Of a DNA stretch of 64,000 nt, positions 9,850 to 44,840 are shown in pieces. The stretch's first letter is position 1, and the number at the start of each line of letters is the position of its first letter. The notes below the pieces were generated by a model. That model searched no databases and was not told where the DNA came from. It saw nothing but the letters and a program-made list of their open reading frames with translations. The stretch is from an uncultured Ruminococcus sp. (GTDB lineage Bacteria; Bacillota; Clostridia; Oscillospirales; Ruminococcaceae): assembly GCA_946537515.1 (NCBI GenBank), contig CAMNFV010000001.1:6812-70811 (forward strand), read 5' to 3'. A program made the translations under genes and the position numbers.

Positions 9850-12732
9850 TTATGCCGGAGAAACAGCCAGATAATCAATATTCGGGCCGCCCTGATCGGT
9901 TTCAGAAGTCATGCGGATCGTGTTCATACCGGGCTGAAGTGTCAGCGAAAGCTTAATATCTGCCCAGGTCGTCCATGCGCCGGTTCCGTTGAAATCAACC
10001 GACTGCCCTGCGCCGCCGTTGACAGAAATCTTCATGACACGGTTCGATTCGCTGCCGTTCGCGACACGGAGCGTACCGTTATAAGTACCGGATTTTGCAG
10101 CATATACGCGGAATTCCACATAGCTGCCGGTCACATTATCGAGATTCAGATACGCCGCATCCTTGAAGCCTGCGTTCGTCGATTCCTCGATACCCTGTGC
10201 ATAGCCGGCGTCGATCGCATAATAGAAGCCGCCGTCATAGGAATCCGATCCGAGCAGATATTTTTGCAGCGCAACTGCATCCGCAATCGTCACAGCGCCG
10301 TCGCCGTTGACATCTGCCGGACGCTTTTCCACTCTGGAGCGCGAAGGCTTGAGAATCTCCTGCTTCATCAGCGAGAGATCAGCTGCATTCACGATGCCGT
10401 CATCGTCAAGATCTCCGGAGATGAAATCCGGAGCAGCCGGATGGAACGAGATCGTTTCCAGTACCCATGTCTGGCACTTTTCGCCGTTCTTTTCCCATTC
10501 CTGTACATTTGCGCCGGCCGCTGCGGATGCCGAAGCAACCTCAACGCACTTTTCAAAGCCGCTAGTCTGCGTCAGGATGATATAGCCGCCGGATACGCGC
10601 CGGAACTGCACCGTCTGTGCCGCTGCATCTTTGCTCTTCTGCACGGATGCATTTCCGTTATCAATCGTCAGAATCTGGCCTGCCGTATTCTTCAGGACAT
10701 AACCGTCCTCGCCGGATGCCTGCAATGTCCAGATCGCATTGGCATTTTCTGCATTTTTATCCTGCACCGCATTGCCGTCTGCACCGGTCAGATAGAGGCC
10801 GCTGCTGAGATTGCGGAGCACAAATGCCTTGGAAGTATCCATAACCGCCGGGGAATCAGAGCCGCTGAGCTGGCCGTTGATCGTCACCGCCGGGCGATCC
10901 GGAAGCGGCTGATCGGAACCGAGATAGAAGCTCGGATGCGGCGGCTGATTGTAGCAGTTCTGCTCGGATGCAACCTGCATTCTGTACTGCATATCGTGCA
11001 TCAGCGTAGTGATGCGGGAATCCGTTGTGTAGGGTGTGCAGAAGATGCGGAGCGTCTTGCTGTCCTGAGAATGCAGGATCAGCTCCTCACGCCAGTCTCC
11101 GAAGATATCCGCGGAGAGATTCGGCGTTGCCTTAGTACCGTTGCAGGAATCAAAACCGGTTGCAGTAAACAGCGTTTCGATCTTACCGGCCTGATTGACC
11201 TTTGTGATCGTATTGCCGTCGAGCAGCTCACGTTCAAGATCGCCGTCCCACCAGATCAGGAAGTTCATCGCCGGGCAGTCCATTGCGAGCGTCTTGCCGC
11301 TGCCGTCAAAGACCGCTTCGGAAAGAGATCCCCAGAATTCACCGCCGGGATTGCCAGCCCAGACATTGCCCGCGCAGCATCTGCCGGTATCCTTGCGGCG
11401 GTTTTCATGCACCAGGATCTTACCGGTCGCCGCGTCAATCAGGGAAACGCCCCAAGGTTCATGCTCATGGCAGACCCAGAATTCCTGTCCGGGGTGATCC
11501 GGCAGAAAGTCACTCAGATGCATCGCGTCGCCGTGGCCGAGATTCGTAGACCAGAGCACCTTGCCGTTGTCATCAAATGCAACTGCACCGACAAGAATCT
11601 CATCCTTGCCGTCACCGTCAACATCAGCCGGCATACAGTTGTGGTTGCCGTTGCCCCAGCCGGTGTAATTGGTCTGCGCAAAACCGGAATCATATGCCCA
11701 GCGCTTGACGAGTTTTTTATTGACCACATCATATGCGACAGCCGTCATACGGGTATAGTATCCACGGAATGAAACCGCGCTCGGATGTACGCCGTCAAGA
11801 TAAGCAACCGTTCCGAGGAAACGGTCGCAGCGGTTGCCGTAATCATCACCCCATGTGGCTTTTGTAACAGTTCCGCGCGGATGCTCATAGCTGACTGTAT
11901 CAAGCAGCGCACCCGTTTCGCCGTCAAACAGCGAATAATACTCCGGACCGGAAAGGATATAGCCGCCGGAATTGCGGTAATCCTTTGACGCGTCTCCGAC
12001 AATCTTTCCCTTTGCATCGACGGTGCCGTCTGCGGTTTTGCAGGTCATTTCGCATTTGCCGTCATTGTCAAAGTCTGCGACAAGGAATTGCGTATAGTGC
12101 GCACCTGCGCGGATATTCTTACCGAGATCAATGCGCCAGAGCTTCTCGCCGGTCAGACGGTAGCAGTCAATATAAACATTGCCGGTATAGCCTGACTGTG
12201 AATTATCCTTCGCATTGGTCGGATTCCATTTCAGGAAGATCTCATATACGCCGTCGCCGTCCACATCACCGACCGAGCAGTCATTCGCCTCATAGGTATA
12301 GGCAACGCCGTCCGGTGACGTGCCGCCGCGCGGAATATCCAGCGGAATATCAAAATAGGACTGGCCGGAGACCATGGAGCAGGTATCCGAGCTGACCTTT
12401 TTCCCGCCGACGACCGTATCGACGCGGTATTTGGAATTCGCGCTGCCGGATGCATCGAGGTAGCTGGTCGCCTTGCCCGCTTCGCTCGTATAAATCAGCG
12501 TATCATCGCGGAAGAGCTGGAATTCCGCTCTGTCATTGTCATTCGCAAGGAACCGCCAGCTGACCATCATCCCCTTGCCGGTATTGTAGGCGATCAAACC
12601 GCGGTCGAGCAGCTCCGCGACATTCTGACCCGTTCCGTATGCAGCAGATGTCGTCAATGAAGCAGGCACCGGAAGCATACCGGCCGCAGCGACAATCGCC
12701 GCAACGACCGTACAACTTTTCTTGATTTTCAT
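9850..12732 (-). CDS. PL11 rhamnogalacturonan lyase (YesW-like beta-propeller) + ricin-B/CBM13-like module + dockerin + C-terminal CBM35/6-like module
   Basis: Signal peptide. Catalytic region YTYEANDCSVGDVDGDGVYEIFLKWNPTNAKDNSQSGYTGNVYIDCY and FLVADFDNDGKCEM (FG-GAP-like Ca sites). Dockerin: GDLDDDGIVNAADLSLMKQ...ADVNGDGAVTIADAVALQKYL. C-terminus: GAWTTWADIKLSLTLQPGMNTIRM...PNIDYLAV. ATG 12732 preferred over the GTG at 12741. Confidence 0.85.
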   Translation of the reverse strand: MKIKKSCTVVAAIVAAAGMLPVPASLTTSAAYGTGQNVAELLDRGLIAYNTGKGMMVSWRFLANDNDRAEFQLFRDDTLIYTSEAGKATSYLDASGSANSKYRVDTVVGGKKVSSDTCSMVSGQSYFDIPLDIPRGGTSPDGVAYTYEANDCSVGDVDGDGVYEIFLKWNPTNAKDNSQSGYTGNVYIDCYRLTGEKLWRIDLGKNIRAGAHYTQFLVADFDNDGKCEMTCKTADGTVDAKGKIVGDASKDYRNSGGYILSGPEYYSLFDGETGALLDTVSYEHPRGTVTKATWGDDYGNRCDRFLGTVAYLDGVHPSAVSFRGYYTRMTAVAYDVVNKKLVKRWAYDSGFAQTNYTGWGNGNHNCMPADVDGDGKDEILVGAVAFDDNGKVLWSTNLGHGDAMHLSDFLPDHPGQEFWVCHEHEPWGVSLIDAATGKILVHENRRKDTGRCCAGNVWAGNPGGEFWGSLSEAVFDGSGKTLAMDCPAMNFLIWWDGDLERELLDGNTITKVNQAGKIETLFTATGFDSCNGTKATPNLSADIFGDWREELILHSQDSKTLRIFCTPYTTDSRITTLMHDMQYRMQVASEQNCYNQPPHPSFYLGSDQPLPDRPAVTINGQLSGSDSPAVMDTSKAFVLRNLSSGLYLTGADGNAVQDKNAENANAIWTLQASGEDGYVLKNTAGQILTIDNGNASVQKSKDAAAQTVQFRRVSGGYIILTQTSGFEKCVEVASASAAAGANVQEWEKNGEKCQTWVLETISFHPAAPDFISGDLDDDGIVNAADLSLMKQEILKPSRSRVEKRPADVNGDGAVTIADAVALQKYLLGSDSYDGGFYYAIDAGYAQGIEESTNAGFKDAAYLNLDNVTGSYVEFRVYAAKSGTYNGTLRVANGSESNRVMKISVNGGAGQSVDFNGTGAWTTWADIKLSLTLQPGMNTIRMTSETDQGGPNIDYLAVSPA

Positions 12733-12910
12733 ACATTTCACCCTTTCTCAATGGCAACCATATGCTTTCTCACACAATTCTCCATTCTTTTTATTTATTA
12801 TAGCATACCACTCCGCAAAAAGATAGTGTATTTTCGGTGCAAAAACTGGATAAAATATAGATTCTGTCCGTATTTCTCCGGAAACTTGTATGATACTTTT
12901 ACATACATGT

Positions 12911-12985: not shown

Positions 12986-14536
12986 TTAAGCGGCAGGCGG
13001 TGCCGGGACTTTATGATAAACTTCAATGATCCACTCAAACGGATCGGTTTTATAAGTCTTCGGCTCGCCAGGTTTCGGATTGCTGATATCGGTCAGCGTC
13101 ACGAGCGCATAATAGTGCCGAACCTCCGATTCCGTGATCTCCGTCTCGATCGTTGTGGAGTATTTGCTGCCGATTCCTGTGCTCTTCAGCTGAGAGCATG
13201 GGATTTCCTCATCGGTATCGGCATTGAACAACTTCACTTCGATTTTGGTTTTCGTCGGTGTCAGCGCAAGCGGAATGGTGAAATAAAAATTATAGGATTC
13301 AGTAATCGTCGTATCCTCCGGAAAAGAATACGAATTGTACTGCCGTTCACCCTGGAACGTGATTTTCGGAGTTTCCTGTTCCTTTCCCGCTGTCATCAGC
13401 ACTTGCTTCAGCAGACTGAGGTCTGCGGCATTGACGATATTATCTTCGTTCAGGTCTGCGAGTACCCAGAAATACAACTCGCCGTCACCGACCAGGTACT
13501 TGCTCAGCATGACCGCATCCGCGATCGTCAGCTGCTCGTCATAATTCACATCGCCGGGAATCGGCTCCTTAAACTGCCCCGGATCAATGATAATCACTTC
13601 ATCCGGTGAAGCCGCAGCGAAATACTGAACGCTCTCTTCTCTGTGCTGCTTTTCCGGATCATCGGTATATCCCATAAAAGTTGCAGCCGTGAGTTTCACA
13701 AGACCGTTGCTGAGCGGACGGTAAACCATGAATATAGAATCCGATTCACCTGCCAGCATCCCCAGCCGATCCTGATGAATATTCTCCGAAGCGATGCACG
13801 CCAGTCTCGTTGTGCCGGTCTGCTTGATTTCCAATTCCTGTCCGGTGCTGTGATTGACCCGGCCGCAGTATACTATATAGTTATCATGCAGCGTGATTGC
13901 TTCGGAATCCTTATGGTTGTTATAAAACGCATCAAATTCTTGAATACTGTCCGGCACCCAGCTGTAAATATCATCTTCGGTGATTTTGTCGTCCTGGTCA
14001 CAGCTGAATTCATAGCAATCGGAATTCAGAAGCTTTGTACCATTATAAATCAGCTGCTTCTCAATTTTCAGCGTGGTATCAGGTTGCATGGAATACACAG
14101 TCAGATGATACTTGTTCGGCGCTTCATAGGCATTCTTTTCTTCATTAAACGCCATGAATTCCAGGTCGCGCATCAGATTCCTATATTCCTGATACTCCTT
14201 TGAATTTTCATCCGGCGCCTCAGGCTTCGGAATCGAATCAAACACGACATCACGATAAACGGAATACGGATTTTCCACTTCGCCGGTCGCATCTATCTTT
14301 TCCGAATACGAATACTTAGCATCCCGAAGCTGCTTCTCCAGAACACAGACCAGACCATCCGCGATATGCGTTGCACCGTACTGATTGGAGAATTCCATTG
14401 CGCTCATATAATCGGTCGGGACCCAGTCCGGTACCGGGACATCCGGCGGAACAGGTTCAGCAAAAGCGGGAAAACTATTCAGAGAAGAAAGTACTAAGAC
14501 TGCCGCTGCAAATCCTGCTGCGATTGTTCGTTTCAT
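12986..14536 (-). CDS. Secreted dockerin-containing protein of unknown function
   Basis: 516 aa. Signal peptide MKRTIAAGFAAAVLVLSSLNSFPAFA. Internal dockerin GDVNYDEQLTIADAVMLSKYL...ADLNEDNIVNAADLSLLKQVL. The flanking modules are unrecognised. AAGGAGG RBS. Confidence 0.75.
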   Translation of the reverse strand: MKRTIAAGFAAAVLVLSSLNSFPAFAEPVPPDVPVPDWVPTDYMSAMEFSNQYGATHIADGLVCVLEKQLRDAKYSYSEKIDATGEVENPYSVYRDVVFDSIPKPEAPDENSKEYQEYRNLMRDLEFMAFNEEKNAYEAPNKYHLTVYSMQPDTTLKIEKQLIYNGTKLLNSDCYEFSCDQDDKITEDDIYSWVPDSIQEFDAFYNNHKDSEAITLHDNYIVYCGRVNHSTGQELEIKQTGTTRLACIASENIHQDRLGMLAGESDSIFMVYRPLSNGLVKLTAATFMGYTDDPEKQHREESVQYFAAASPDEVIIIDPGQFKEPIPGDVNYDEQLTIADAVMLSKYLVGDGELYFWVLADLNEDNIVNAADLSLLKQVLMTAGKEQETPKITFQGERQYNSYSFPEDTTITESYNFYFTIPLALTPTKTKIEVKLFNADTDEEIPCSQLKSTGIGSKYSTTIETEITESEVRHYYALVTLTDISNPKPGEPKTYKTDPFEWIIEVYHKVPAPPAA

Positions 14537-19558: not shown

Positions 19559-20809
19559 TTATTCCATTCCTACTATATAAACATAATTCGTAGTAGCACT
19601 GCCACCGATATTCAGCATCATAGCATTTTTAACATTCTCGATTTGATATTCGCCTGCTTTTCCTGTGACCTGCTTATACAAATCAAGGAACATTCTTGCT
19701 CCGGAAGCACCGACAGGATGACCACAACCGATCAGGCCTCCGCTCGGATTAATAGGCTTGTTTCCGCCAAAAGCAATGGTTCCATTTTCTATCGCTTCGT
19801 ACTCATGTCCCGGTGCTGTGATACCAAAGCTTGAAATAGCCGCATACTCTGAACTTGTAAAGCAATCGTGTGTCTCAAAGCAGTCGATATCATCAACAGT
19901 CAACCCGCTTCTTTTATATGCATCAAGCACGGTCTGTCTTGTCCACGGAAGAACATAGTCCGAATCAGCATTGTCAGCCATTTTCTTATCAAAAAGCATC
20001 GGTGCAACTCTGTGCCCATAGCCCTTGATAACAGGTTTATTCTTTATGCCATGCTCTTTCATGAATTTTTCCGAACAAAGCACAACGACAGCTGCTCCGT
20101 CAGTAACCTGTGAACAATCGGAAACTGCAAGCTTACCGCCGACTAATGGGTTCGTATCTGTTCCTCTTGTGCTTGCCTGTTCGAAGCTCATAAACCACTT
20201 TCTTGTCTGTGCGAGCGGATTTCTCTTGGCATTTTCATAATTAATGACGCTGATTCTCGCAAGCGCATCCATATATCGTTTTTCATCAAGCTCCGGATAT
20301 TTTTTCAATGTTTCATCAGCAAGCTTTCCGAACAGCTTCGGAAAAGGAAGATCAATTCCTTCGCCTTCCTTTTTATAGTAAGCAGCCCGGCCGAGAAAAT
20401 CACCGCCGAGTTTGGAATCAACAGTCTTCATAAGCTCCCAGCCTACTACGATTGCCAAATCATATTCGTCAGCCATTATCTTTGTCTGTGCTGCATCAAT
20501 CGCTACAGAGCTGGATGCACAAGCTGCTTCATATCTGGCAGAAGGCACACCATAAAATGCAGGATCAACTTCAGTAAGAAATGCGCCGAGATGTCCCTGC
20601 TCTGTATATTTTTCAGCAATAAAATTACCTACAAAGCAAGCAACTCTATTGTCCTTATTCAGCGCTTTCACATCATCAAGAGTGATGCCGGCATCGGCCA
20701 AACCATCAGCGATTACTTCTTTCAGTAACGCTACCATGTTTTTGCCTTCTTTTTTCCAGTTACGCTCAAAATCGGTCTGAGCACCACCAAGTACATAAAC
20801 CTTACTCAT
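19559..20809 (-). CDS. Thiolase-family protein (acetyl-CoA C-acetyltransferase / SCP-x-like)
   Basis: 416 aa. [15 protein letters not shown] (nucleophile Cys), [10 protein letters not shown] and [17 protein letters not shown] (C-terminal His/Cys blocks). GGGGAGG RBS. Low-GC gene. Confidence 0.8.
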
Positions 20810-20815
20810 CTGCGC

Positions 20816-22135
20816 TTACCTCCCCGATTTGAAATACAGTCTGTAATCATACTTTGAAGGCTTCATGTATGCTAAAAGTTTGTCGATGTCAACCTTACCG
20901 CAAATTTCAGGCAGTCTCTCCCTGATCAGTGCAGGAACATCTGCAACTGTAGATAATGCCTGGTACATTGCAAGCGGAGGACACCAGTTAAAGCCTGTTG
21001 CCATAACATCATCAGCTGCCTCAATGGTATACCCGACTTCTTCAGTTGCATAAAGCGAATACACGATGTATTTCAGAAGGAATGAGAGGCAGATCTCAGC
21101 TTCCTGCGAACGATTATTCACCAGTCTTTCAAAAGCCTTGGCATAATCGCCTTCCTTTATGAATTTTTTCATCTTACTTGCAAATGGAAATACATAGGGA
21201 ATCACATCACGGTAAAATCCGGTGTTTAAATCGAGAACCGTATTACGCTTCAAGCCGTTATCATATCGAATCGTCTGATACAGACCCATTCCGGATTTGC
21301 GTCCGAGTTTTTTCTCTTCAACCAGTTTCTGGACGAAATCAGGAAGAATAAAAGTCTCATGCGCATAGTCATTTGTGTTTTCGTAAAGGTTGTCTACAAT
21401 CGCCTTATGAACATCGAGTCCGACAAAATCAGATGTTACAAGCGGAGCCATTGCTCTTCCGGTGAATGAACCGAGAAGCGCGTCAATGTAGTCAATACCG
21501 CCGTTGTCCTTATATTTTTCAGCATACTGTAACGCTTCGTTGATAAACTGAAAACCGATACGATTTCCGAGAAATGCAGGTGAATCCTTCACCTCAACAA
21601 CTGTACGGAACAGCTTATTCTTGAGATATGCCTTTAATTCTTCCGCCAATTCCCTGTCCGAGTACTTTGTTGGAGTGAATTCACAGAGCGGCATATTATA
21701 CGGCGGATTGAACATATGAACGCCGAAGAAATGACTTCTCAGATTCTCAGGATAGCATTCCGCCAGCGTCGTAATAGAAAGGCCTGATGTACCGGTACAC
21801 GCAACAGCATGAGGCTGCAATGCTTTCGCAATCTTACTGTGAACATCCTTCTTGACTTCAATATTCTCTGCTGCACTTTCAAAGACTATATCTGAATCAG
21901 ATACACACTTTTCAAGCATTGAGAAATCTGCCGGAATCAAGTTCTTGGAAATACTGTCAGCTCTGACTGACTTTACGATTCTCGGAATCGTTTTCTTTAC
22001 TTTTTCTATGTCGCGGGCAACACAGTATACTTTCGCATTACCAAATGAAGCAAAAATACCTGCGACATTTGCGCCCATAGTACCTGTTGCGCCAACAACT
22101 GTTACAACTGATGCTTTCAAACACAAATCCTCCAT
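20816..22135 (-). CDS. 3-hydroxyacyl-CoA dehydrogenase family protein (long form)
   Basis: Rossmann VVTVVGATGTMGANVAG, GVHMFNPP, DSPAFLGNRIGF. The start is ambiguous between ATG 22135 and TTG 22150, which overlaps the upstream gene. Confidence 0.8.
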   Translation of the reverse strand: MEDLCLKASVVTVVGATGTMGANVAGIFASFGNAKVYCVARDIEKVKKTIPRIVKSVRADSISKNLIPADFSMLEKCVSDSDIVFESAAENIEVKKDVHSKIAKALQPHAVACTGTSGLSITTLAECYPENLRSHFFGVHMFNPPYNMPLCEFTPTKYSDRELAEELKAYLKNKLFRTVVEVKDSPAFLGNRIGFQFINEALQYAEKYKDNGGIDYIDALLGSFTGRAMAPLVTSDFVGLDVHKAIVDNLYENTNDYAHETFILPDFVQKLVEEKKLGRKSGMGLYQTIRYDNGLKRNTVLDLNTGFYRDVIPYVFPFASKMKKFIKEGDYAKAFERLVNNRSQEAEICLSFLLKYIVYSLYATEEVGYTIEAADDVMATGFNWCPPLAMYQALSTVADVPALIRERLPEICGKVDIDKLLAYMKPSKYDYRLYFKSGR

Positions 22136-22139
22136 AAAC

Positions 22140-22790
22140 TTATTCTTCAAAAAACTTAATCGGCTTCGCCGGACTTCCGACGGCTGTGCATTTATCAGGG
22201 ATATCCTTTACGACAACAGCTCCTGCTCCGACGATTGAGTAATTACCAACCGTTTTGCCCTGAATGATCTGCATTCCTGTTCCAAGTTCAGAGCAATATC
22301 CGATATTTGTAATTCCGGATACATTTACAGAAGGATACAATGTTACAAAATCCTGCAAAACAGCGTCATGACCAACGGTACAATCAAGATTGATGATAAC
22401 ATGAGAACCAATTTCAATATTCACAGTTATGATTGAATGCGCGCAAATAATAGTACCTTCACCAACAGTAACCAAATCAGAAATTTCGACAGACGGGTCT
22501 ATCACTGTACCAAATTTGATATCAGGATTGATCTCTTTCACCCGGTTTACAATCTTTTCTCTTGTTCTTGAAGCGCCAACAGCACAAACAAAATATGCAT
22601 CTGTAAATTTTCCTGCATCCTCTGTTTTACCAAGAACAGAGTATCCGTTAATCAACTTTCCCTGAATCTCATCATCATCATCAAGGAAGCCAAGAAGATT
22701 CCAGGCTGGTTCTTTCGCATTGATTCGTTCTACTAACCAAGCAACTTCACGACCAAAGCCGCTTGCTCCGATAATAATTAAGTCTTTCAT
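22140..22790 (-). CDS. NeuD/PglD-family sugar acyltransferase (left-handed beta-helix)
   Basis: 216 aa. N-terminal Rossmann-like LIIIGASGFGREVAWLV. Hexapeptide repeats IGSHVIINLDCTVGHDAVLQDFVTLYPSVNVSG. Confidence 0.8.
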   Translation of the reverse strand: MKDLIIIGASGFGREVAWLVERINAKEPAWNLLGFLDDDDEIQGKLINGYSVLGKTEDAGKFTDAYFVCAVGASRTREKIVNRVKEINPDIKFGTVIDPSVEISDLVTVGEGTIICAHSIITVNIEIGSHVIINLDCTVGHDAVLQDFVTLYPSVNVSGITNIGYCSELGTGMQIIQGKTVGNYSIVGAGAVVVKDIPDKCTAVGSPAKPIKFFEE

Positions 22791-23539
22791 TATAATTCCT
22801 CATCCGTTCCCATAAATTCAGTCATAGTTGCAGATTCTGCTCCGCTAATGCCTTCTCTTTTGACGACTGCTTTCACAGTATCAAAAATAATCTTTAAATC
22901 ACCTTTGAAGGTGATATGATCCACATATGCAACATCAAAGTCGAATTTATCTTCCCATGACATCGCATTTCTGCCGTGCGCCTGTGAATATCCGGTAAGA
23001 CCCGGTCTCACTTCATGCCTTCTTGCCTGATGCTTGTTATACCGCTCCAGGTATCTTACAAGCAGCGGTCTCGGTCCGACAATAGCCATATCTCCCTTGA
23101 TGATATTGAGGAGTTCCGGCAGCTCATCTAAGCTGGTACTTCTGAGGAGCTTGCCGAATTTCGTAAGTCTCACATCATCAGGAAGCAGATCACCATTTTC
23201 ATCGCGTTCATCTGTCATCGTTCTGAACTTATAAAGCTTGAAAATCTTCTCATTTCTGCCCGGCCGGTCCTGCGTGAACAAAACAGGCGAGCCGAGCTTC
23301 GTGCGAACAAGTAACGCTGTCAAAGCTAACACAGGAGACAGAACGATCAATGCGCCTGTACTCAGGAAACAATCAAGCGGTCTTTTGATGAATCGCTCAT
23401 AGACACCATATGATTTATGAGCCATTGCTTTGACTTTGTTTTTTTGTTCATCCATTCTGTCTGCAATAAAAGCGAGTCCGGCAGTGAACGCAGCAAATGC
23501 GGAAATAACAGCAGTGATCACTGCTAAAGTCTTTACCAA
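22790..23539 (-). CDS. Small phosphoglycosyl (undecaprenyl-phosphate sugar-phosphate) transferase, PglC/WbaP-C/EpsL type
   Basis: YERFIKRPLDCFLSTGALIVLSPVLALTALLV, FTQDRPG, KFRTM, DELPQ-like DELPELLNIIKGDMAIVGPRP. The ORF start at 23539 is TTG; internal ATGs at 23455 and 23425 are possible. Confidence 0.8.
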   Translation of the reverse strand: MVKTLAVITAVISAFAAFTAGLAFIADRMDEQKNKVKAMAHKSYGVYERFIKRPLDCFLSTGALIVLSPVLALTALLVRTKLGSPVLFTQDRPGRNEKIFKLYKFRTMTDERDENGDLLPDDVRLTKFGKLLRSTSLDELPELLNIIKGDMAIVGPRPLLVRYLERYNKHQARRHEVRPGLTGYSQAHGRNAMSWEDKFDFDVAYVDHITFKGDLKIIFDTVKAVVKREGISGAESATMTEFMGTDEEL

Positions 23540-38007: not shown

Positions 38008-39546
38008 TCAGCGTTTGACAAAATACTCCTCATACCAGACAAGGAAGGTATAGATCGTCCAGATCTTGCGCCAGAGATCAGAATTTCCGCCGACATATTC
38101 CTCATAAATCGCACGAACCTCATCCGGCTTGAAGAATTTTGCACAGATATCACTGCCGAGCAGTCTGCGGACATCGCCGTTATACTGCTCATCGGCAAGC
38201 CACAGGCGGATCGGAACAATAAAGCCGAGCTTCTTGCGGAATGCAATTTCCTCCGGCAGAACCTTTGCCGCAGCGGTACGGAATGCAACTTTATTCTGTT
38301 CCTCATTGACCTTGAACTTCGACGGCATCCGCGATGCAATGTCAAAGATGCGGCGATCCGTCAGCGGCATCCGGATCTCAAGCCCGGCAGCCGTACTCAT
38401 CTTATCGACATTCAGATAGATATCGCCTTCCAGCCAGATCTGAATATCGACATCGGACATTTTCGTCAGCGGATCAAGCCCCTCGGTCTCCTCATAAATG
38501 TGCTGCACAAGCTTAATCGGCAGCACCTCCGGGTCATAATGCTGCAAAATCCGCTCTTTCTCATCTTCCTTCATGATGTTGGTATTGCCGACATAGAAGG
38601 TCTTGAGATTGTCGCCGTAGCGCTCTGCATTGCGGTACATATTGTAACCGCCGAAGAATTCATCCGCACCCTCGCCGGAATAACAAAGCTTCGTGTGCTC
38701 TGCCGTTGCATTGCAGCCGAGTGTAAATACGATTGCAGATGCATCACCGAGCGGCTGCTCCATATTGTACATCACATACGGAACGATGTCAAAATACTGC
38801 TGCGGCGTGATCTTCGCAACAGAATGTTCCACGCCAAGCAGTTCGGCTGTCTTTGACGCAATCCGCGATTCATCGAAGCGCTCCTCATCATAGCCGCAGG
38901 AATCCGCGCGCTTTGCATCGGACATTGCCAGCACATAGGACGAATCCACACCGCCGGACAGGAAGGATTCAGCCGTCTCATCCGGTGTCTTGACCTCCTG
39001 CATCATCAGCTGAAGCGTCGCATGGATCTCATCTGCAAATTCGTCGAGCGATTTGCTGTTATCCGGGTGAAACTCCGGCTTCCAGTATCGCGTCAGGCTG
39101 ATTTTTCCGTTCTGAAATTCAAGCAGACAGCCGGGCATCAGCTTCTTGACACCCTTGAAAAATGTATCCTCACCTGCCACATAAGTCAGCGTCAGGTAGA
39201 TCTGAAGCATACTCTCATTGAGTTCCTTGACAAAGCCTTCCTGCGAAAGGATCTCGCGGATCATCGTACCGTAGAGCAGTCTGCCGTCTGCGGTCTGATA
39301 ATAATAGAACGGCTTGGTGCCGAACTGATCGCGGATGCAGATCAGCTTATCCGCTTCCGTATCATAAAGCGCGAATGCGAACATGCCGTAAAGATGATCC
39401 GGCAGCGCATTGCCCCAGGTCTCATAGCCCTTGATCAGGATCGCCTGCTCCCGCTCTTCACGGGAAAGCGTCTTGTCAATCGAGAGCTCTGTGCAGAGCG
39501 CTTCCCAGTTGCGGATGTGACCGCGGTAAGTTTTCAGTTGAATCAT
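38008..39546 (-). CDS. Asparagine synthase (AsnB) family protein lacking the N-terminal glutaminase nucleophile
   Basis: 512 aa. Begins MIQLKTYRGHIRNWEAL and aligns by eye to E. coli AsnB from about residue 70 (...GMFAFALYD). PP-loop SFLSGGVDSS is present. It has its own promoter and RBS (ACGGAG). Confidence 0.8.
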   Translation of the reverse strand: MIQLKTYRGHIRNWEALCTELSIDKTLSREEREQAILIKGYETWGNALPDHLYGMFAFALYDTEADKLICIRDQFGTKPFYYYQTADGRLLYGTMIREILSQEGFVKELNESMLQIYLTLTYVAGEDTFFKGVKKLMPGCLLEFQNGKISLTRYWKPEFHPDNSKSLDEFADEIHATLQLMMQEVKTPDETAESFLSGGVDSSYVLAMSDAKRADSCGYDEERFDESRIASKTAELLGVEHSVAKITPQQYFDIVPYVMYNMEQPLGDASAIVFTLGCNATAEHTKLCYSGEGADEFFGGYNMYRNAERYGDNLKTFYVGNTNIMKEDEKERILQHYDPEVLPIKLVQHIYEETEGLDPLTKMSDVDIQIWLEGDIYLNVDKMSTAAGLEIRMPLTDRRIFDIASRMPSKFKVNEEQNKVAFRTAAAKVLPEEIAFRKKLGFIVPIRLWLADEQYNGDVRRLLGSDICAKFFKPDEVRAIYEEYVGGNSDLWRKIWTIYTFLVWYEEYFVKR

Positions 39547-39718: not shown

Positions 39719-42055
39719 TTATTTCTGATATTTTGCCTTATCCATTTCACGGATCGCTGCACGGCGGATCTTGCCGCTGCCGACCGTCTTCGGCAGTTCG
39801 TCAACGAACTCCACGACACGCGGATACTTATAGGGCGCAGTTCCCTTCTTGACATAATCCTGAATATCCTTGACAAGCGCATCCGAAGGAACCGTCCCTT
39901 TCGTCAGAACAATCGTCGCCTTGACAACCTGTCCGCGAATCTCATCCGGGACACCGGTTACAGCGCATTCCAGAACATACGGCAGTTCCATAAGCACGCT
40001 CTCGATCTCGAACGGTCCGATCCGGTAGCCGGAAGACTTGATGACATCATCGACACGGCCGACATACCAGAAATAACCGTCTTCATCGACCCATGCGGTA
40101 TCGCCGGTATGATAGTAGCCGTCACGCCAGGTTTCTTCGGTGGTTTCCTTGTCGCCGTAGTAGCAGAGTGCAAGACCGGGAACACCTTCCGGCTTCAGCT
40201 TGATGCAGATCTCGCCGGTCTCACCGACAGCCGCCGGTGTGCCGTCCGGCAGAAGCACCTGCACATCATACTGCGGATTCGGTCTGCCCATGCTGCCGGG
40301 CTTGGGCTCCATACCGACGACATTCGCGATCGAAAGCGTCGTTTCGGTCTGACCAAAGCCCTCCATCAGCTTGAGGCCGGTTGCACGCTGGAACTGATAG
40401 AATACTTCCGGATTCAGCGCTTCACCTGCGATGCAGGCATATTTCAGCGAAGAGAGATCATATCTGCCGAGATCTTCCTTGATGAAGAAGCGGTACATGG
40501 TCGGCGGTGCGCAGAACGATGTAACATGATACTTCTTGAACATCGGCAGGATATCGTCTGCATGGAAGCGGTCGAAATCATAGACAAATACAGCAGATTC
40601 GCACATCCACTGACCGTAAAGCTTGCCCCAGAGGGCCTTGCCCCAGCCGGTATCAGAGATTGTGAAGTGCAGGCCGTTCGGATCGGCATTCTGCCAGTAA
40701 CGGGCCGTGACATAGTGACCGAGCGGATACTGATAGCTGTGCAGCACGAGCTTCGGGTTGCCGGAAGTACCGGAACTGAAGAAGATCAGCATCGGATCGG
40801 TGCCGCAGGGTGTTTCCGCAGTCCGTGCGAAATGTGTACTGTATGCCGGGAGCTCTGCATTGAAGTCATGCCAGCCCTCGCGCTGACCGTTGACCAGCAC
40901 TTTCGTTTTCAGCGACGGACAGTTTGCAGCAGCCAGATCGACCTCATTTGCGACATCGCCGTCCGCGGTACAAACGATCGCTGAAACCTCTGCGGAATTG
41001 AATCTGTATTCAAAATCATGCTTCTTGAGCATATTGGATGCCGGGATGGCCAGCGCGCCGATGCGGTGCAGCGCGACAATCGAGAACCAGAACTGGAAGT
41101 GCCGCTTCAGAACGAGCATGACGCGGTCGCCCTTCTTGATACCGAGCGACTTGAAATAGTTTGCCGTCTGGCAGGAATACTTTTTGATATCCTTGAAGGT
41201 GAAGCGGCGCTCATTATGATTGACATCGACATAGATCATCGCGGTTTTATCCGGACATTTCTCAGCCATTGCATCGACAATATCGAATGCGAAGTTGAAC
41301 TCATCCTGATGCTCAAAATGTACGCCGCTGAGGATGCCTTCCTCATTTGTTTCGCAGGTGACGAACTTCTCTGCGACCGGATGCATCAGGCCTGCCTTAT
41401 CGACATTGGTCGAATGATGCTCCGCTACATGCTCATGATACTCAGAAAGACCGGTTGTGCCGTGCGGCGCCATGACAAATGCATAGATCTCACAGTCTTC
41501 ACCGCCGAGTGCAACCTCATCATGCGGCATGGAGCTGTCATAGTAAATGCAGTCTCCTTCGTGCAGAATCTCGGTATGTGAGCCGACGATCATACGCAGC
41601 GTGCCCTTGAGGACGATATCCATTTCCTGACCCGCATGACTTGCAAGGTGAAGCGGCTTGGAAAGTGCTTCCTCGGAATACGGGATCACAACATGAAAAG
41701 GCTCAACGGTCTTGTTCTTGAATTTCGATGCAAGGCGGTTATAGACAAAGCCCTCTCTGCGGACAATCGGCACACCCTCGCCCTTTCTGGTAACGGTATA
41801 GCCGCTCAGCTCCGGGCTGCTGCCTTCCATCAGTTCCGAAATCTCAACATGAAACGCATTTGCGCATTTATAGATAAACGTAAAGCTGAAATCCTTTTCG
41901 CCGGATTCAAACTTCTTGTAGTCCTCAACGGAATAATCCGTTTTCGCAGCCATTTCCTCAACAGAAATACCGAGATCCTCACGCAGACGCGCAATTCGCT
42001 CTGCAACCTCTTTGATTCTGGCTTCGGCATTCTGAAGGTTCTTCTGGTCGCTCAT
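39719..42055 (-). CDS. Fusion protein: XRE-type HTH + cupin domain + AMP-forming (medium/short-chain) acyl-CoA synthetase
   Basis: ORF 39719-42151, trimmed to ATG 42055 (GGAGAG RBS). HTH: RIARLREDLGISVEEMAAKTDYSVEDYKKFESGEK. Cupin: HAGQEMDIVLKGTLRMIVGSHTEILHEGDCIYYDSSMPH. AMP-binding cores: FFSSGTSGNPKLV, YHTGDTAWVDEDGYFWYVGRVDDVIKSSGYRIGPFEIES and LPKTVGSGKIRR. Confidence 0.85.
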   Translation of the reverse strand: MSDQKNLQNAEARIKEVAERIARLREDLGISVEEMAAKTDYSVEDYKKFESGEKDFSFTFIYKCANAFHVEISELMEGSSPELSGYTVTRKGEGVPIVRREGFVYNRLASKFKNKTVEPFHVVIPYSEEALSKPLHLASHAGQEMDIVLKGTLRMIVGSHTEILHEGDCIYYDSSMPHDEVALGGEDCEIYAFVMAPHGTTGLSEYHEHVAEHHSTNVDKAGLMHPVAEKFVTCETNEEGILSGVHFEHQDEFNFAFDIVDAMAEKCPDKTAMIYVDVNHNERRFTFKDIKKYSCQTANYFKSLGIKKGDRVMLVLKRHFQFWFSIVALHRIGALAIPASNMLKKHDFEYRFNSAEVSAIVCTADGDVANEVDLAAANCPSLKTKVLVNGQREGWHDFNAELPAYSTHFARTAETPCGTDPMLIFFSSGTSGNPKLVLHSYQYPLGHYVTARYWQNADPNGLHFTISDTGWGKALWGKLYGQWMCESAVFVYDFDRFHADDILPMFKKYHVTSFCAPPTMYRFFIKEDLGRYDLSSLKYACIAGEALNPEVFYQFQRATGLKLMEGFGQTETTLSIANVVGMEPKPGSMGRPNPQYDVQVLLPDGTPAAVGETGEICIKLKPEGVPGLALCYYGDKETTEETWRDGYYHTGDTAWVDEDGYFWYVGRVDDVIKSSGYRIGPFEIESVLMELPYVLECAVTGVPDEIRGQVVKATIVLTKGTVPSDALVKDIQDYVKKGTAPYKYPRVVEFVDELPKTVGSGKIRRAAIREMDKAKYQK

Positions 42056-42073
42056 TGAAATCTCTCCTATCCT

Positions 42074-42352
42074 AAAAAAATAAAAAACCCGTCCCAAAGA
42101 AAAATCTTTGAGACGAGTATCATCCAAATGATTACCCGCGGTACCACTCAAATTGTGCCGCTATTGCGTAACACCACTTTCAGGTTCCAACAAACCCTAT
42201 TCTTTCACGCAGACTCACGGGAACGCTTACTTTGACCATTCAGCGCTCCGGCTCAGAAGGGATACACAGCATTGCATGACACCGGCTCACACCACCCGCC
42301 GGCTCTCTGAAGACATTGGCAATCCTCTGCTTGGCTTCCTCATTGCCTTTCG
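42074..42352 (-). promoter_or_regulatory. T-box leader (tRNA-sensing transcription attenuator), probable specifier AUC (Ile)
   Basis: Minus strand shows the following. K-turn GGC-AAUGAG-GAAG / CUUC-UGA-GCC. AGAGAG bulge. Distal hairpin CCGGC-GGGUGGUGUGA-GCCGG. Stem II GGAGCGCU..AGCGUUCC. T-box AAUUUGAGUGGUACCGCGGG (42154-42135). Terminator CUCGUCUCAAAG-auuuuu-CUUUGGGACGGG followed by U6AU7 (42117-42074). An alternative antiterminator pairing is UUUGAG/CUCAAA. Confidence 0.8.
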
Positions 42353-42358
42353 ATGTGT

Positions 42359-42387
42359 ATTGTATCACAAAAAATTTTATTTGTCAA
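42359..42387 (-). promoter_or_regulatory. SigA-type promoter of the T-box leader
   Basis: Minus strand reads TTGACA (42387-42382), 17-nt spacer, TACAAT (42364-42359), directly after the nth stop codon. Confidence 0.7.
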
Positions 42388-43311: not shown

Positions 43312-43854
43312 ATGGGAACCGCACATCATTTTGAGCCGGAGAAGCTCATCTGTGCCGTATTGTATACCGATGAAGCCGCCGCTGAAGCCGCAGTCGCAAA
43401 GCTGAAAGCGGCATTCGGCGAAACCGATCTTGAATCCGAAGCATACAGCTTTTCTGCGATCTCGCCCTATTATGACGGCGAAATGGGCGGCACCGTCTAC
43501 CGCAAGATGCTTTCATTTTCAGTCTGCCGCGATCCGCAGGAGCTCGCCGCGATCAAGACGCTGACGAACAGCATCGAGCAGGAAACCGCCGATGCCGGCA
43601 ACCGTCATATCAATCTCGATCCGGGATTTGTCAGCCCGGGCAGGCTGTCGCTCGCAACGACCAAGAACGCCGGCCACCGCATCCCGCTCTCCGACGGCAT
43701 CTATGCAGAACTCACGCTGTTCTATGCGCGCCGTGCCTGGCATCCGTTCCCGTGGACATACATGGATTTCAAGCTGCCGCAGGTACATGAATTCTTATCA
43801 AAGGCACGCCGAATTTACATGCAGCAGCGGAAAAGCTGGCTTTCCAGCGACTGA
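43312..43854 (+). CDS. DUF4416 family protein
   Basis: ORF from 43270, trimmed to ATG 43312. Motifs: INLDPGFVSPGRLSLATTKNAGHRIPLSDGIYAELTLFY...WTYMDF. Confidence 0.7.
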   Translation: MGTAHHFEPEKLICAVLYTDEAAAEAAVAKLKAAFGETDLESEAYSFSAISPYYDGEMGGTVYRKMLSFSVCRDPQELAAIKTLTNSIEQETADAGNRHINLDPGFVSPGRLSLATTKNAGHRIPLSDGIYAELTLFYARRAWHPFPWTYMDFKLPQVHEFLSKARRIYMQQRKSWLSSD

Positions 43855-44840
43855 CGCATCTGCCGGACACGGCTCGTCAGCTGTTCACCGGTAAGTCCCA
43901 GCATACATCCTGTCCACACGGCACCGTAGGCAAAGGCAAGCGTCATCCCGCCGAGCGGAATTGCACCCTCCTGCACCAGATCATACCCGGAACCATAGCT
44001 CTGGATCTGTTCCTGACACGGTGCCAGATAGCAGGGAATCTCCAGACTCCGGCAGCGCTGTATCAGCGTCTGAACAGCATACGGCGAAAAGCGAACCGAA
44101 TTTGCGGTTTCGGAATGATAGGTTCCGTGTACGACAGCAGCTGCATCATCAAGTGCAATTTTGTCATAACGAAGCCCGTTGTACGGACGGATCAGCATAA
44201 TTTCCGGCGCAGCCTTGGCATGTGCCACAAGCATCTGCAAATCTGTGCAGGTGCTTTTTTTATAGACCGGCTCTGCATCCAGAACAGCAGACATTTTCCG
44301 CATCGTTCTGCTGTAAAAGGAGCGGCTTTCATGCTGGCACGGCTGCAATTCAAAGCCGCGGTGCAGATACATTTCTCCGTCGCTGTTTTCGTAAATGACC
44401 CAGACGCCGCCGGAAAGATGCTTGCAGGTCAGCTTGACGGCTGCATCAAAATTCGCATGGCCGTTGGTCTGGGGTTCATTCAGCGGTTCAATCGCAGAAA
44501 CAAGCAGCACAGGGATTGAAATGCCGATCAGCGCAGCAGAAAGCATTGCCGCAGTCTGATCAAGCGTATCCGTCCCGTGGGCAATGATAATTCCGTCATA
44601 GCGGCGAAGATCGAGCGCCGCAATCGTTTGCAGCAGCGTACACCAGTCATCCGGCGTCAGATCCTCGCTCAATGCATTCAGCGGCATCTGCACATCAAAT
44701 TCAACCGATGAATACGGATGTGCCAGCCGGTAATGCTGTTCGAGAACTGTTGACGCTTTACTGACATCACTCCGGCGTGTACCGTCTGAACCGGCGCGGC
44801 TGCAAATTGTACCGCCGGTCAGGATCAACGCAATCCGCAT
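43815..44840 (-). CDS. ansA: L-asparaginase (type I family)
   Basis: 341 aa. ILTGGTICS (nucleophile Thr block) and IIIAHGTDTLDQTAAML. The 3' end overlaps the convergent DUF4416 gene by 40 nt. Confidence 0.8.
   Translation of the reverse strand: MRIALILTGGTICSRAGSDGTRRSDVSKASTVLEQHYRLAHPYSSVEFDVQMPLNALSEDLTPDDWCTLLQTIAALDLRRYDGIIIAHGTDTLDQTAAMLSAALIGISIPVLLVSAIEPLNEPQTNGHANFDAAVKLTCKHLSGGVWVIYENSDGEMYLHRGFELQPCQHESRSFYSRTMRKMSAVLDAEPVYKKSTCTDLQMLVAHAKAAPEIMLIRPYNGLRYDKIALDDAAAVVHGTYHSETANSVRFSPYAVQTLIQRCRSLEIPCYLAPCQEQIQSYGSGYDLVQEGAIPLGGMTLAFAYGAVWTGCMLGLTGEQLTSRVRQMRQSLESQLFRCCM

Follow-up and report, generated by a model that had tools for sequence, protein, structure and literature searches.

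The DNA analysed here (the window) is a stretch of 64,000 nucleotides from an uncultured Ruminococcus sp. (assembly GCA_946537515.1, contig CAMNFV010000001.1, positions 6,812 to 70,811). Its reverse strand carries a gene for a 778-residue protein, in which a helix-turn-helix (HTH)-cupin module is fused to an AMP-forming acyl-coenzyme A (acyl-CoA) synthetase, and a leader RNA of the T-box class with an isoleucine specifier precedes this gene. A preliminary description made from the sequence alone had proposed this arrangement, stressing that the target is not an aminoacyl-tRNA synthetase, a biosynthetic gene or a transporter, and the Pfam matches agree with the fusion that it described (Table 1). 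The promoter, which had been placed directly after the nth stop codon, indeed begins 9 nt past it and has an upstream TG; an equivalent TTGACA-17-TATAAT promoter is present at orthologous loci too. A leader of ~300 nt lies between the promoter and the open reading frame (ORF), and orthologues keep AAAGGAG at the position of the ribosome-binding site. We regard the fusion gene as monocistronic because its stop codon is followed by a terminator-like hairpin and the next gene has a promoter of its own (39642-39614).

Table 1. Features of the T-box-controlled synthetase locus and of related loci. Positions are those of the window unless a locus is given.
Feature	Position	Strand	Evidence or detail
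nth (endonuclease III), 5' neighbour of the promoter	43046-42396	-	stop codon 42396-42398
Sigma-70-type promoter: TTGACA 42387-42382, 17-nt spacer, TG-extended TACAAT 42364-42359	42359..42387	-	11/12 consensus matches
T-box leader, complete	42106..42352	-	RF00230, 105.8 bits, E 2.4e-22, model positions 1-219/219
Stem I	42251..42346	-	Rfam alignment and covariation over 43 leaders
Specifier codon AUC (Ile), then C42260, then lower helix	42261..42263	-	Rfam alignment and orthologues
T-box sequence AAUUUGAGUGGUACCGCGGG	42135..42154	-	Rfam alignment; UGGU at 42146-42143
Antiterminator: helix UUUGAG/CUCAAA, 7-nt bulge UGGUACC, upper helix	42107..42152	-	folds at -13.1 kcal/mol
Intrinsic terminator: 14-bp hairpin 42118-42087, then U-run	42074..42118	-	-21.6 kcal/mol, z -7.0
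Ribosome-binding site GGAGAG, 6 nt before ATG	42062..42067	-	read from sequence
Coding sequence, 778 aa, HTH-cupin module and putative Macs/MbcS-type acyl-CoA synthetase	39719..42055	-	ATG 42055, stop 39719
HTH_3 (aa 21-75) and Cupin_2 (aa 136-192), invariant H140, E144, H178	41480..41995	-	Pfam
AMP-binding (aa 263-619) and AMP-binding_C (aa 683-757)	39785..41269	-	Pfam
Terminator-like hairpin after the stop codon	39686..39713	-	sequence scan
Long-range helix (L024, L026, L033, L045, L047, L048, L063, L077 and ~20 more loci)	28 nt before Stem I, 35 nt from terminator U-run		
Leu T-box upstream of the TIM-barrel-ligase fusion gene L007:6865-9447(-)	L007:9505-9759	-	
Leu T-boxes at other loci	L073:1468-1714, L032:1450-1693, L054:1452-1692, L045:246-485		

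Scanning the whole window against Rfam 15 with cmscan gave a single cis-regulatory match, to the T-box model RF00230, which is covered in full and scores above its gathering threshold of 93 bits, in agreement with the preliminary assignment. The Rfam alignment places in Stem I the pairs G42346-C42251 and C42345-G42252, the lower helix GAAG/CUUC, the specifier loop, a kink-turn (AAUGAG/UGA), an AGAGAG bulge and the distal loop GGGUGGUGUGA, while stem II carries GAA...AGUA. The kink-turn, the bulge, the distal loop, stem II and the T-box sequence all lie where they had been described. The UGGU of the T-box sequence is complementary to the ACCA end of tRNA, with which it is predicted to pair. One strand, CUCGUCUCAAAG, is common to the terminator and the antiterminator, and since the terminator outweighs its competitor in folding energy (Table 1), termination is the predicted default state, just as for classical T-boxes. 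The competition between the two structures, proposed earlier, stands, except that the terminator hairpin has 14 pairs and not 12. The specifier loop appears, from the sequences of the family, to be reduced and to contain an extra helix, which would be GGUC/GACY in a large clade.

On its 3' side the specifier loop reads GUGUAUCC, with AUC in the codon columns of the Rfam alignment and C in the "purine" column. To compare leaders we used 80 orthologous loci, one genome per species, out of roughly 500 loci of the family. In 64 of the 80 the motif TGGTACCGCG precedes the gene by ~100 nt, and a TGGTCCCGCG variant at locus L050 brings the number of T-box leaders to 65. In this T-box, which lies ~120 nt before the gene at 512, a C replaces an A of the bulge (UGGUCCCGCG), which does not vary elsewhere; the ATC specifier and the terminator are intact. 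In all 65 leaders a single base separates ATC from the lower helix of Stem I. The bases that precede ATC vary (gtgtATCc, gcccATCa, acttATCa), and a count over 55 leaders gave A as the next base in 30, C in 23 and G in 2. Rfam scores of the orthologous leaders range from 93 to 115 bits, the loci scanned and found above threshold being L001, L002, L007, L032, L069 and L073. Four other triplets were considered as specifiers (UGU for Cys, UAU for Tyr, GUA for Val and UCC for Ser) and were rejected, since no triplet but ATC both stays constant and keeps register with the lower helix, which covaries.

The helices that flank the codon were followed in 43 leaders. The closing base pair of Stem I is G-C in 24 and A-U in 18 of them, GAAG/CUUC in the lower helix gives way to GAGG/CCUC in some (AU in 39, GC in 4), and five of the six pairs of the distal helix have changed on both sides. 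Counted over 16 pairs of a structure that was specified by hand, not predicted from the alignment, the paired fraction of cells is 91%, and sliding the partner column lowers it to 35-51%. Changes on both sides occur in 11 of the 16 pairs, and none of 500 shuffles attained the observed values. RNAalifold, run on a MAFFT alignment of Stem I, recovered the distal helix alone; the middle of that alignment is structurally inconsistent between clades.

A UGGU bulge is present in all leaders, and the discriminator base of the cognate tRNA should therefore be A, as it is in bacterial tRNA-Ile. No tRNA-Ile gene was found in the window or the fetched loci when we looked for one to check A73. The isoleucine call, which the preliminary description had advanced tentatively for AUC at 42263-42261 and had backed with the same discriminator argument, is now firm, given the constancy of ATC in the 65 leaders, the UGGU in all of them and the covariation of the helices on either side. 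The leader is a T-box with an isoleucine specifier, an assignment that we regard as close to certain.

Among solved structures, the best relative of the synthetase part is 3ETC (680 bits, 57% identity over 529 residues), the MacsMa enzyme of Methanosarcina acetivorans, which favours 2-methylbutyrate and completes formation of the CoA ester with that acid alone (PMC10455477). Residues K473 and W476 of the window protein (motif GWGK473ALW476GK) correspond to K256 and W259 of MacsMa, and G568 (EGFGQTET) is, as in MacsMa, the glycine that replaces the acetate-pocket tryptophan of Acs (Trp416); the roles of these residues in the acyl pocket are taken from the same study (PMC10455477). All three are conserved or invariant across the fusion family. 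MacsMa differs from the window protein in having neither an HTH-cupin module nor a T-box. The top NCBIfam model is MbcS (NF047394; 447.4 bits over profile positions 22-524 of 525), and the MbcS of S. aureus is selective for 2-methylbutyrate and isobutyrate (PMC10026030). The score falls short of the equivalog cut-off of 850 bits, which means that the window protein is no orthologue of MbcS; the S. aureus enzyme, moreover, feeds fatty-acid priming and has no N-terminal module. Judged by these homologies, the product most likely belongs with MacsMa and MbcS among the AMP-forming synthetases for short branched-chain acyl-CoA, with 2-methylbutyrate as its substrate. The earlier proposal of 2-methylbutyrate or a close relative is thus strengthened by homology to MacsMa and, short of an equivalog match, to MbcS.

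More than 120 full-length homologues of the fusion protein were found (63-100% identity), mostly in metagenome-assembled genomes (MAGs) of Oscillospiraceae and Ruminococcus. The 80 loci come overwhelmingly from rumen and gut members of these groups; among them are those of R. flavefaciens SAb67, a cultured strain (L002, 89% identity), and of an uncultured Ruminococcus (L001, 94%). The Rfam scan showed no T-box at 11 of the 80 loci (L022, L023, L025, L027, L030, L037, L052, L057, L060, L068 and L071), and three others (L006, L009, L066) lie too near a contig end on their upstream side to be judged. One of the 11, L052, shares its MAG with the T-box copy L003, of which it is a paralogue. A number of T-box-less members have in common, after a consensus promoter, a leader of ~100 nt that starts with AUGUAAGC(A/U)CAGG and contains a hairpin.

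A neighbour-joining tree built on the synthetase part has T-box copies throughout the fusion family, with MacsMa and the split forms outside it. In the split form, an HTH-cupin gene (188-196 aa) whose product is ~50% identical to the N-terminal module of the window protein lies 2-11 nt upstream of a synthetase gene of 556-558 aa, with no T-box (L081:6001-8270, L084:6001-8249, L086:562-2810). Clustering of 755 neighbouring ORFs from the 80 loci produced no partner present in more than nine, and conserved operon partners (VOR/OFOR, ilvE, a transporter) were rejected on this ground. The gene context varies from locus to locus. A gene for a protein of 470-480 aa with an ACT domain and a metallo-beta-lactamase fold comes immediately after the fusion gene in six loci (L001:3009-4451, L004, L024, L034, L055, L063), where the two overlap or lie no more than 90 nt apart; in L077 it is upstream instead. 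It is present in the closest relatives of the window, L001 and L004, but absent from that position in the window.

The leaders of the large non-flavefaciens clade contain a further element. Their 5' end, AAAUUUGAAUA-UC-ACAAA, pairs with UUUGU-UU-UAUUCAAAUUU at and just past the terminator U-tract, forming a long-range helix (-10 to -19 kcal/mol, z -3 to -9.5) that is absent from the clade of the window. Judged from these pairings, it would enclose the whole T-box in read-through transcripts. In the large sister clade, CAAAUUUGAAUAUCAC near the leader start and its reverse complement after the terminator were considered as an operator pair, a possibility that was rejected in favour of an RNA helix. 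The grounds were the RNAduplex result, changes that preserve G-U pairing, a register shift in L036 and L053, and full compensation in L063.

The N-terminal module matches the HTH_3 and Cupin_2 models of Pfam above their cut-offs (31.8 bits against 23 and 40.4 bits against 27.2, respectively). The AlphaFold2 model of residues 1-247, with a mean predicted local distance difference test (pLDDT) of 73, consists of a five-helix HTH-like domain and a cupin barrel, and its top Foldseek matches were HppE (hydroxypropylphosphonate epoxidase) and relatives (1ZZ7 and related, E 8e-12), non-heme-iron enzymes of the same two-domain build, followed by 1Y9Q, an uncharacterised protein annotated as a regulator. 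A sequence profile of the family detects HppE over both domains (E 5e-6), and in the profile alignment H140, E144 and H178 fall on the HAGNE...PH motif of HppE, which we take to be its iron-binding triad H138/E142/H180. Because TM-scores to the HppE group are 0.33-0.45 and identity is ~20%, we do not file the module as an HppE-like member. It shares with the HTH-cupin iron enzymes HppE, HEPD, MPnS and Psf4 an HTH-like alpha domain followed by a cupin and the aligned His/Glu/His residues, but the window locus is devoid of phosphonate context and the module is fused or coupled to a CoA ligase. Oxygen or peroxide chemistry is unlikely since the host is a strict anaerobe.

The preliminary description had suggested a BirA-like enzyme and repressor. 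The HTH-cupin part of such a bifunctional protein would bind DNA and repress the promoter of its own gene or of others, the acyl-adenylate or acyl-CoA being a possible co-repressor, beside the T-box. The HTH_3 match above threshold speaks for this, as do the distant similarity to PuuR and to the HTH_3-cupin regulator 1Y9Q, which have the same HTH_3 and Cupin_2 architecture and weak full-length similarity to the module, and the annotation of stand-alone homologues as XRE regulators by their sources. However, the PuuR equivalog model, whose cut-off is 211 bits, gives 14.8, other regulator models are also far under their cut-offs, and the relative detected over both domains, with the His/Glu/His triad aligned, is an enzyme that does not bind DNA. 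The recognition helix is acidic: V43-E44-D45 sit where the 434 repressor has the base-contacting Q28-Q29-S30, and E44 is conserved in at least 90% of sequences, stand-alone homologues included. A search at the promoter of the gene itself revealed no conserved operator; spacer and flanks there vary within the clade of the window, and the lone palindrome is A/T-rich and clade-variable. The lone conserved element near the sister-clade promoters acts as the RNA helix with compensatory changes described above. The module also exists as a separate gene, translationally coupled to the synthetase gene downstream, and tight coupling with repeated fusion is more usual for subunits than for regulators. 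BirA is likewise adenylate-forming and has an N-terminal domain of DNA-binding type, but this is a conceptual analogy only, the folds and families being unrelated. Taken as a whole, this evidence makes a BirA-like role unlikely. The module is probably an accessory or regulatory domain that binds metal, and not a repressor that binds DNA; fusion and tight gene coupling suggest a stoichiometric partner of the synthetase, which could serve as a metal-dependent sensor (for example in feedback by isoleucine), a scaffold or a catalyst.

The T-box and the synthetase can be joined in one scheme. The strong constitutive promoter would fire, and by default the 14-bp terminator would form and halt transcription ahead of the gene. 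Uncharged tRNA-Ile(GAU) would pair through its anticodon with AUC in the specifier loop of Stem I and then through its free ACCA end with the UGGU bulge, so that the antiterminator would be stabilised and the gene transcribed. The synthetase, with the HTH-cupin module as its obligate partner, would then convert 2-methylbutyrate from the rumen or gut to 2-methylbutyryl-CoA, which would be reductively carboxylated to 2-keto-3-methylvalerate and transaminated to isoleucine. 2-Methylbutyrate is a recognised isoleucine precursor in rumen microbes and methanogens (PMC7356843; PMC10658910). We infer that isoleucine starvation would switch on 2-methylbutyrate activation, which is the best-supported reading. 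That a terminating T-box specific for tRNA-Ile controls a single 2-methylbutyrate-activating gene, with a product leading to isoleucine, is on the whole probable. The function from 2-methylbutyrate to isoleucine, for which the substrate, the reductive carboxylation and the transamination are all deduced, we hold with the same or slightly less confidence.

Several points weigh against this reading. Both caveats of the preliminary description were correct: in the window the codon is followed by C and no purine, and the S-turn consensus AGUA/GAA is replaced by AGCA/GUG at the aligned positions. T-box control is not universal in the family, given the 11 loci where the Rfam scan showed none, the paralogue L052 among them. 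The MbcS score is under its equivalog cut-off, and the substrate is assigned throughout the fusion family from homology alone. The downstream pathway is assumed, since neither a 2-oxoacid:ferredoxin oxidoreductase nor an aminotransferase is among the conserved neighbours, and 2-methylbutyryl-CoA could equally prime anteiso fatty acids.

A second branched-chain T-box bears on this last point. In several related genomes the gene with the Ile T-box has as its neighbour another acyl-CoA-synthetase fusion under T-box control (Table 1). The T-box there is of the Leu type (GAA-CUC-A, 93-130 bits) and drives either a leuA-like gene followed by one for a protein of 820-860 aa or the latter gene alone. 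This protein combines a xylose-isomerase-like TIM barrel with AMP-binding domains (best NCBIfam model PRK12583, 709 bits) and may be an isovalerate-activating counterpart. One of these loci has a third T-box (L032:11599-11850, 101.8 bits), with an apparent UUC (Phe) specifier.

The same T-box and product could serve lipid synthesis, with scavenged 2-methylbutyrate priming anteiso branched-chain fatty acids when isoleucine, from which the anteiso primer is normally derived, is low. This is compatible with the logic of a T-box that responds to low isoleucine, and MbcS, the best NCBIfam match, has such a role in S. aureus (PMC10026030; PMC11167679). However, what T-boxes characteristically govern is the recovery of cognate tRNA charging, through aminoacyl-tRNA synthetases, biosynthesis and transport (Wels 2008; PMC3766115), and the Leu T-box, by driving a leuA-like gene together with another acyl-CoA synthetase, ties such ligases to amino acid synthesis. 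Lipid and isoleucine uses of 2-methylbutyryl-CoA are compatible with each other; as a replacement for the route to isoleucine, we consider the lipid role rather improbable.

Less probable still is another acid as the source of isoleucine, whether propionate, the chief candidate, which by a known anaerobic route would give propionyl-CoA and, after reductive carboxylation, 2-oxobutyrate for the ilv pathway, or the substrate of a broad short-chain or acetate ligase. MacsMa adenylates C3-C8 acids and acetate-CoA ligase models of NCBIfam give strong partial scores (348.8 bits), but all acetate and propionate ligase models are far under their cut-offs, the acetate-pocket Trp is Gly as in medium-chain enzymes with the W259 equivalent kept, and MacsMa forms no CoA ester from propionate (PMC10455477).

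Other genes of the window were noted in passing. Pfam scans of 26 window ORFs revealed no relevant pathway gene. The gene downstream of the fusion (38008-39546, reverse strand) encodes an asparagine-synthase homologue, starting MIQLKTYRG..., whose match to the asnB model begins only at profile position 74; it is seemingly without the N-terminal part of the glutaminase domain, the Cys nucleophile included. An asparaginase-family gene is nearby (43815-44840, reverse strand). Dockerin-bearing proteins, among them a family-11 rhamnogalacturonan lyase, fit a cellulosomal Ruminococcus, and there is a cluster of thiolase-like, 3-hydroxyacyl-CoA-dehydrogenase-like, PglD-N acetyltransferase-like and sugar transferase genes (jointly with the dockerin proteins at 9850-12741, 12986-14536 and 19559-23539, all on the reverse strand).

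With the Ile T-boxes of ileS and ilv genes in Firmicutes the window leader shares the Stem I features, the AUC codon, the UGGU bulge and the terminator/antiterminator switch. Classical Ile T-boxes differ in their targets (aminoacyl-tRNA synthetase, ilv, leu or transporter genes), in having the S-turn consensus and in the purine after the codon, which is C in the clade of the window. The surveys of T-box targets that were consulted do not mention an acyl-CoA synthetase or any other CoA-related target (Wels 2008; PMC3766115). A search of full-text literature, with dedicated T-box databases outside its scope, found no paper joining a T-box with an acyl-CoA synthetase or ligase, 2-methylbutyrate or this fusion, and the literature searched likewise gave no paper naming genes that activate branched-chain volatile fatty acids. 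Within its well-known class the RNA itself is unremarkable; what is new is its target and the metabolic implication.

Cellulolytic ruminococci and many other rumen and gut anaerobes require branched-chain volatile fatty acids, a need that underlies the use of isoacid supplements in ruminant nutrition. The Ile T-box before a MacsMa/MbcS-like ligase in ~65 species, including R. flavefaciens SAb67, offers a candidate gene and a regulatory logic for this requirement. As a tentative generalisation, about which we are somewhat more doubtful than confident, branched-chain T-boxes may have been recruited for salvage of the matching volatile fatty acids: the Ile T-box for 2-methylbutyrate, the Leu T-box for a second, unrelated ligase, perhaps of isovalerate. 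To this would be added an obligate, HppE-like, metal-binding cupin partner of new function, be it an allosteric sensor, an oligomerisation scaffold or a catalyst; this widespread HTH-cupin partner of acyl-CoA synthetases is labelled a transcription factor by annotation pipelines, perhaps wrongly. The T-box regulon would be widened beyond aminoacyl-tRNA synthetases, biosynthesis and transport to the salvage of a carbon-skeleton precursor. If true, this would for the first time give access at the level of genes to the need of cellulolytic ruminococci for branched acids, which has long been known.

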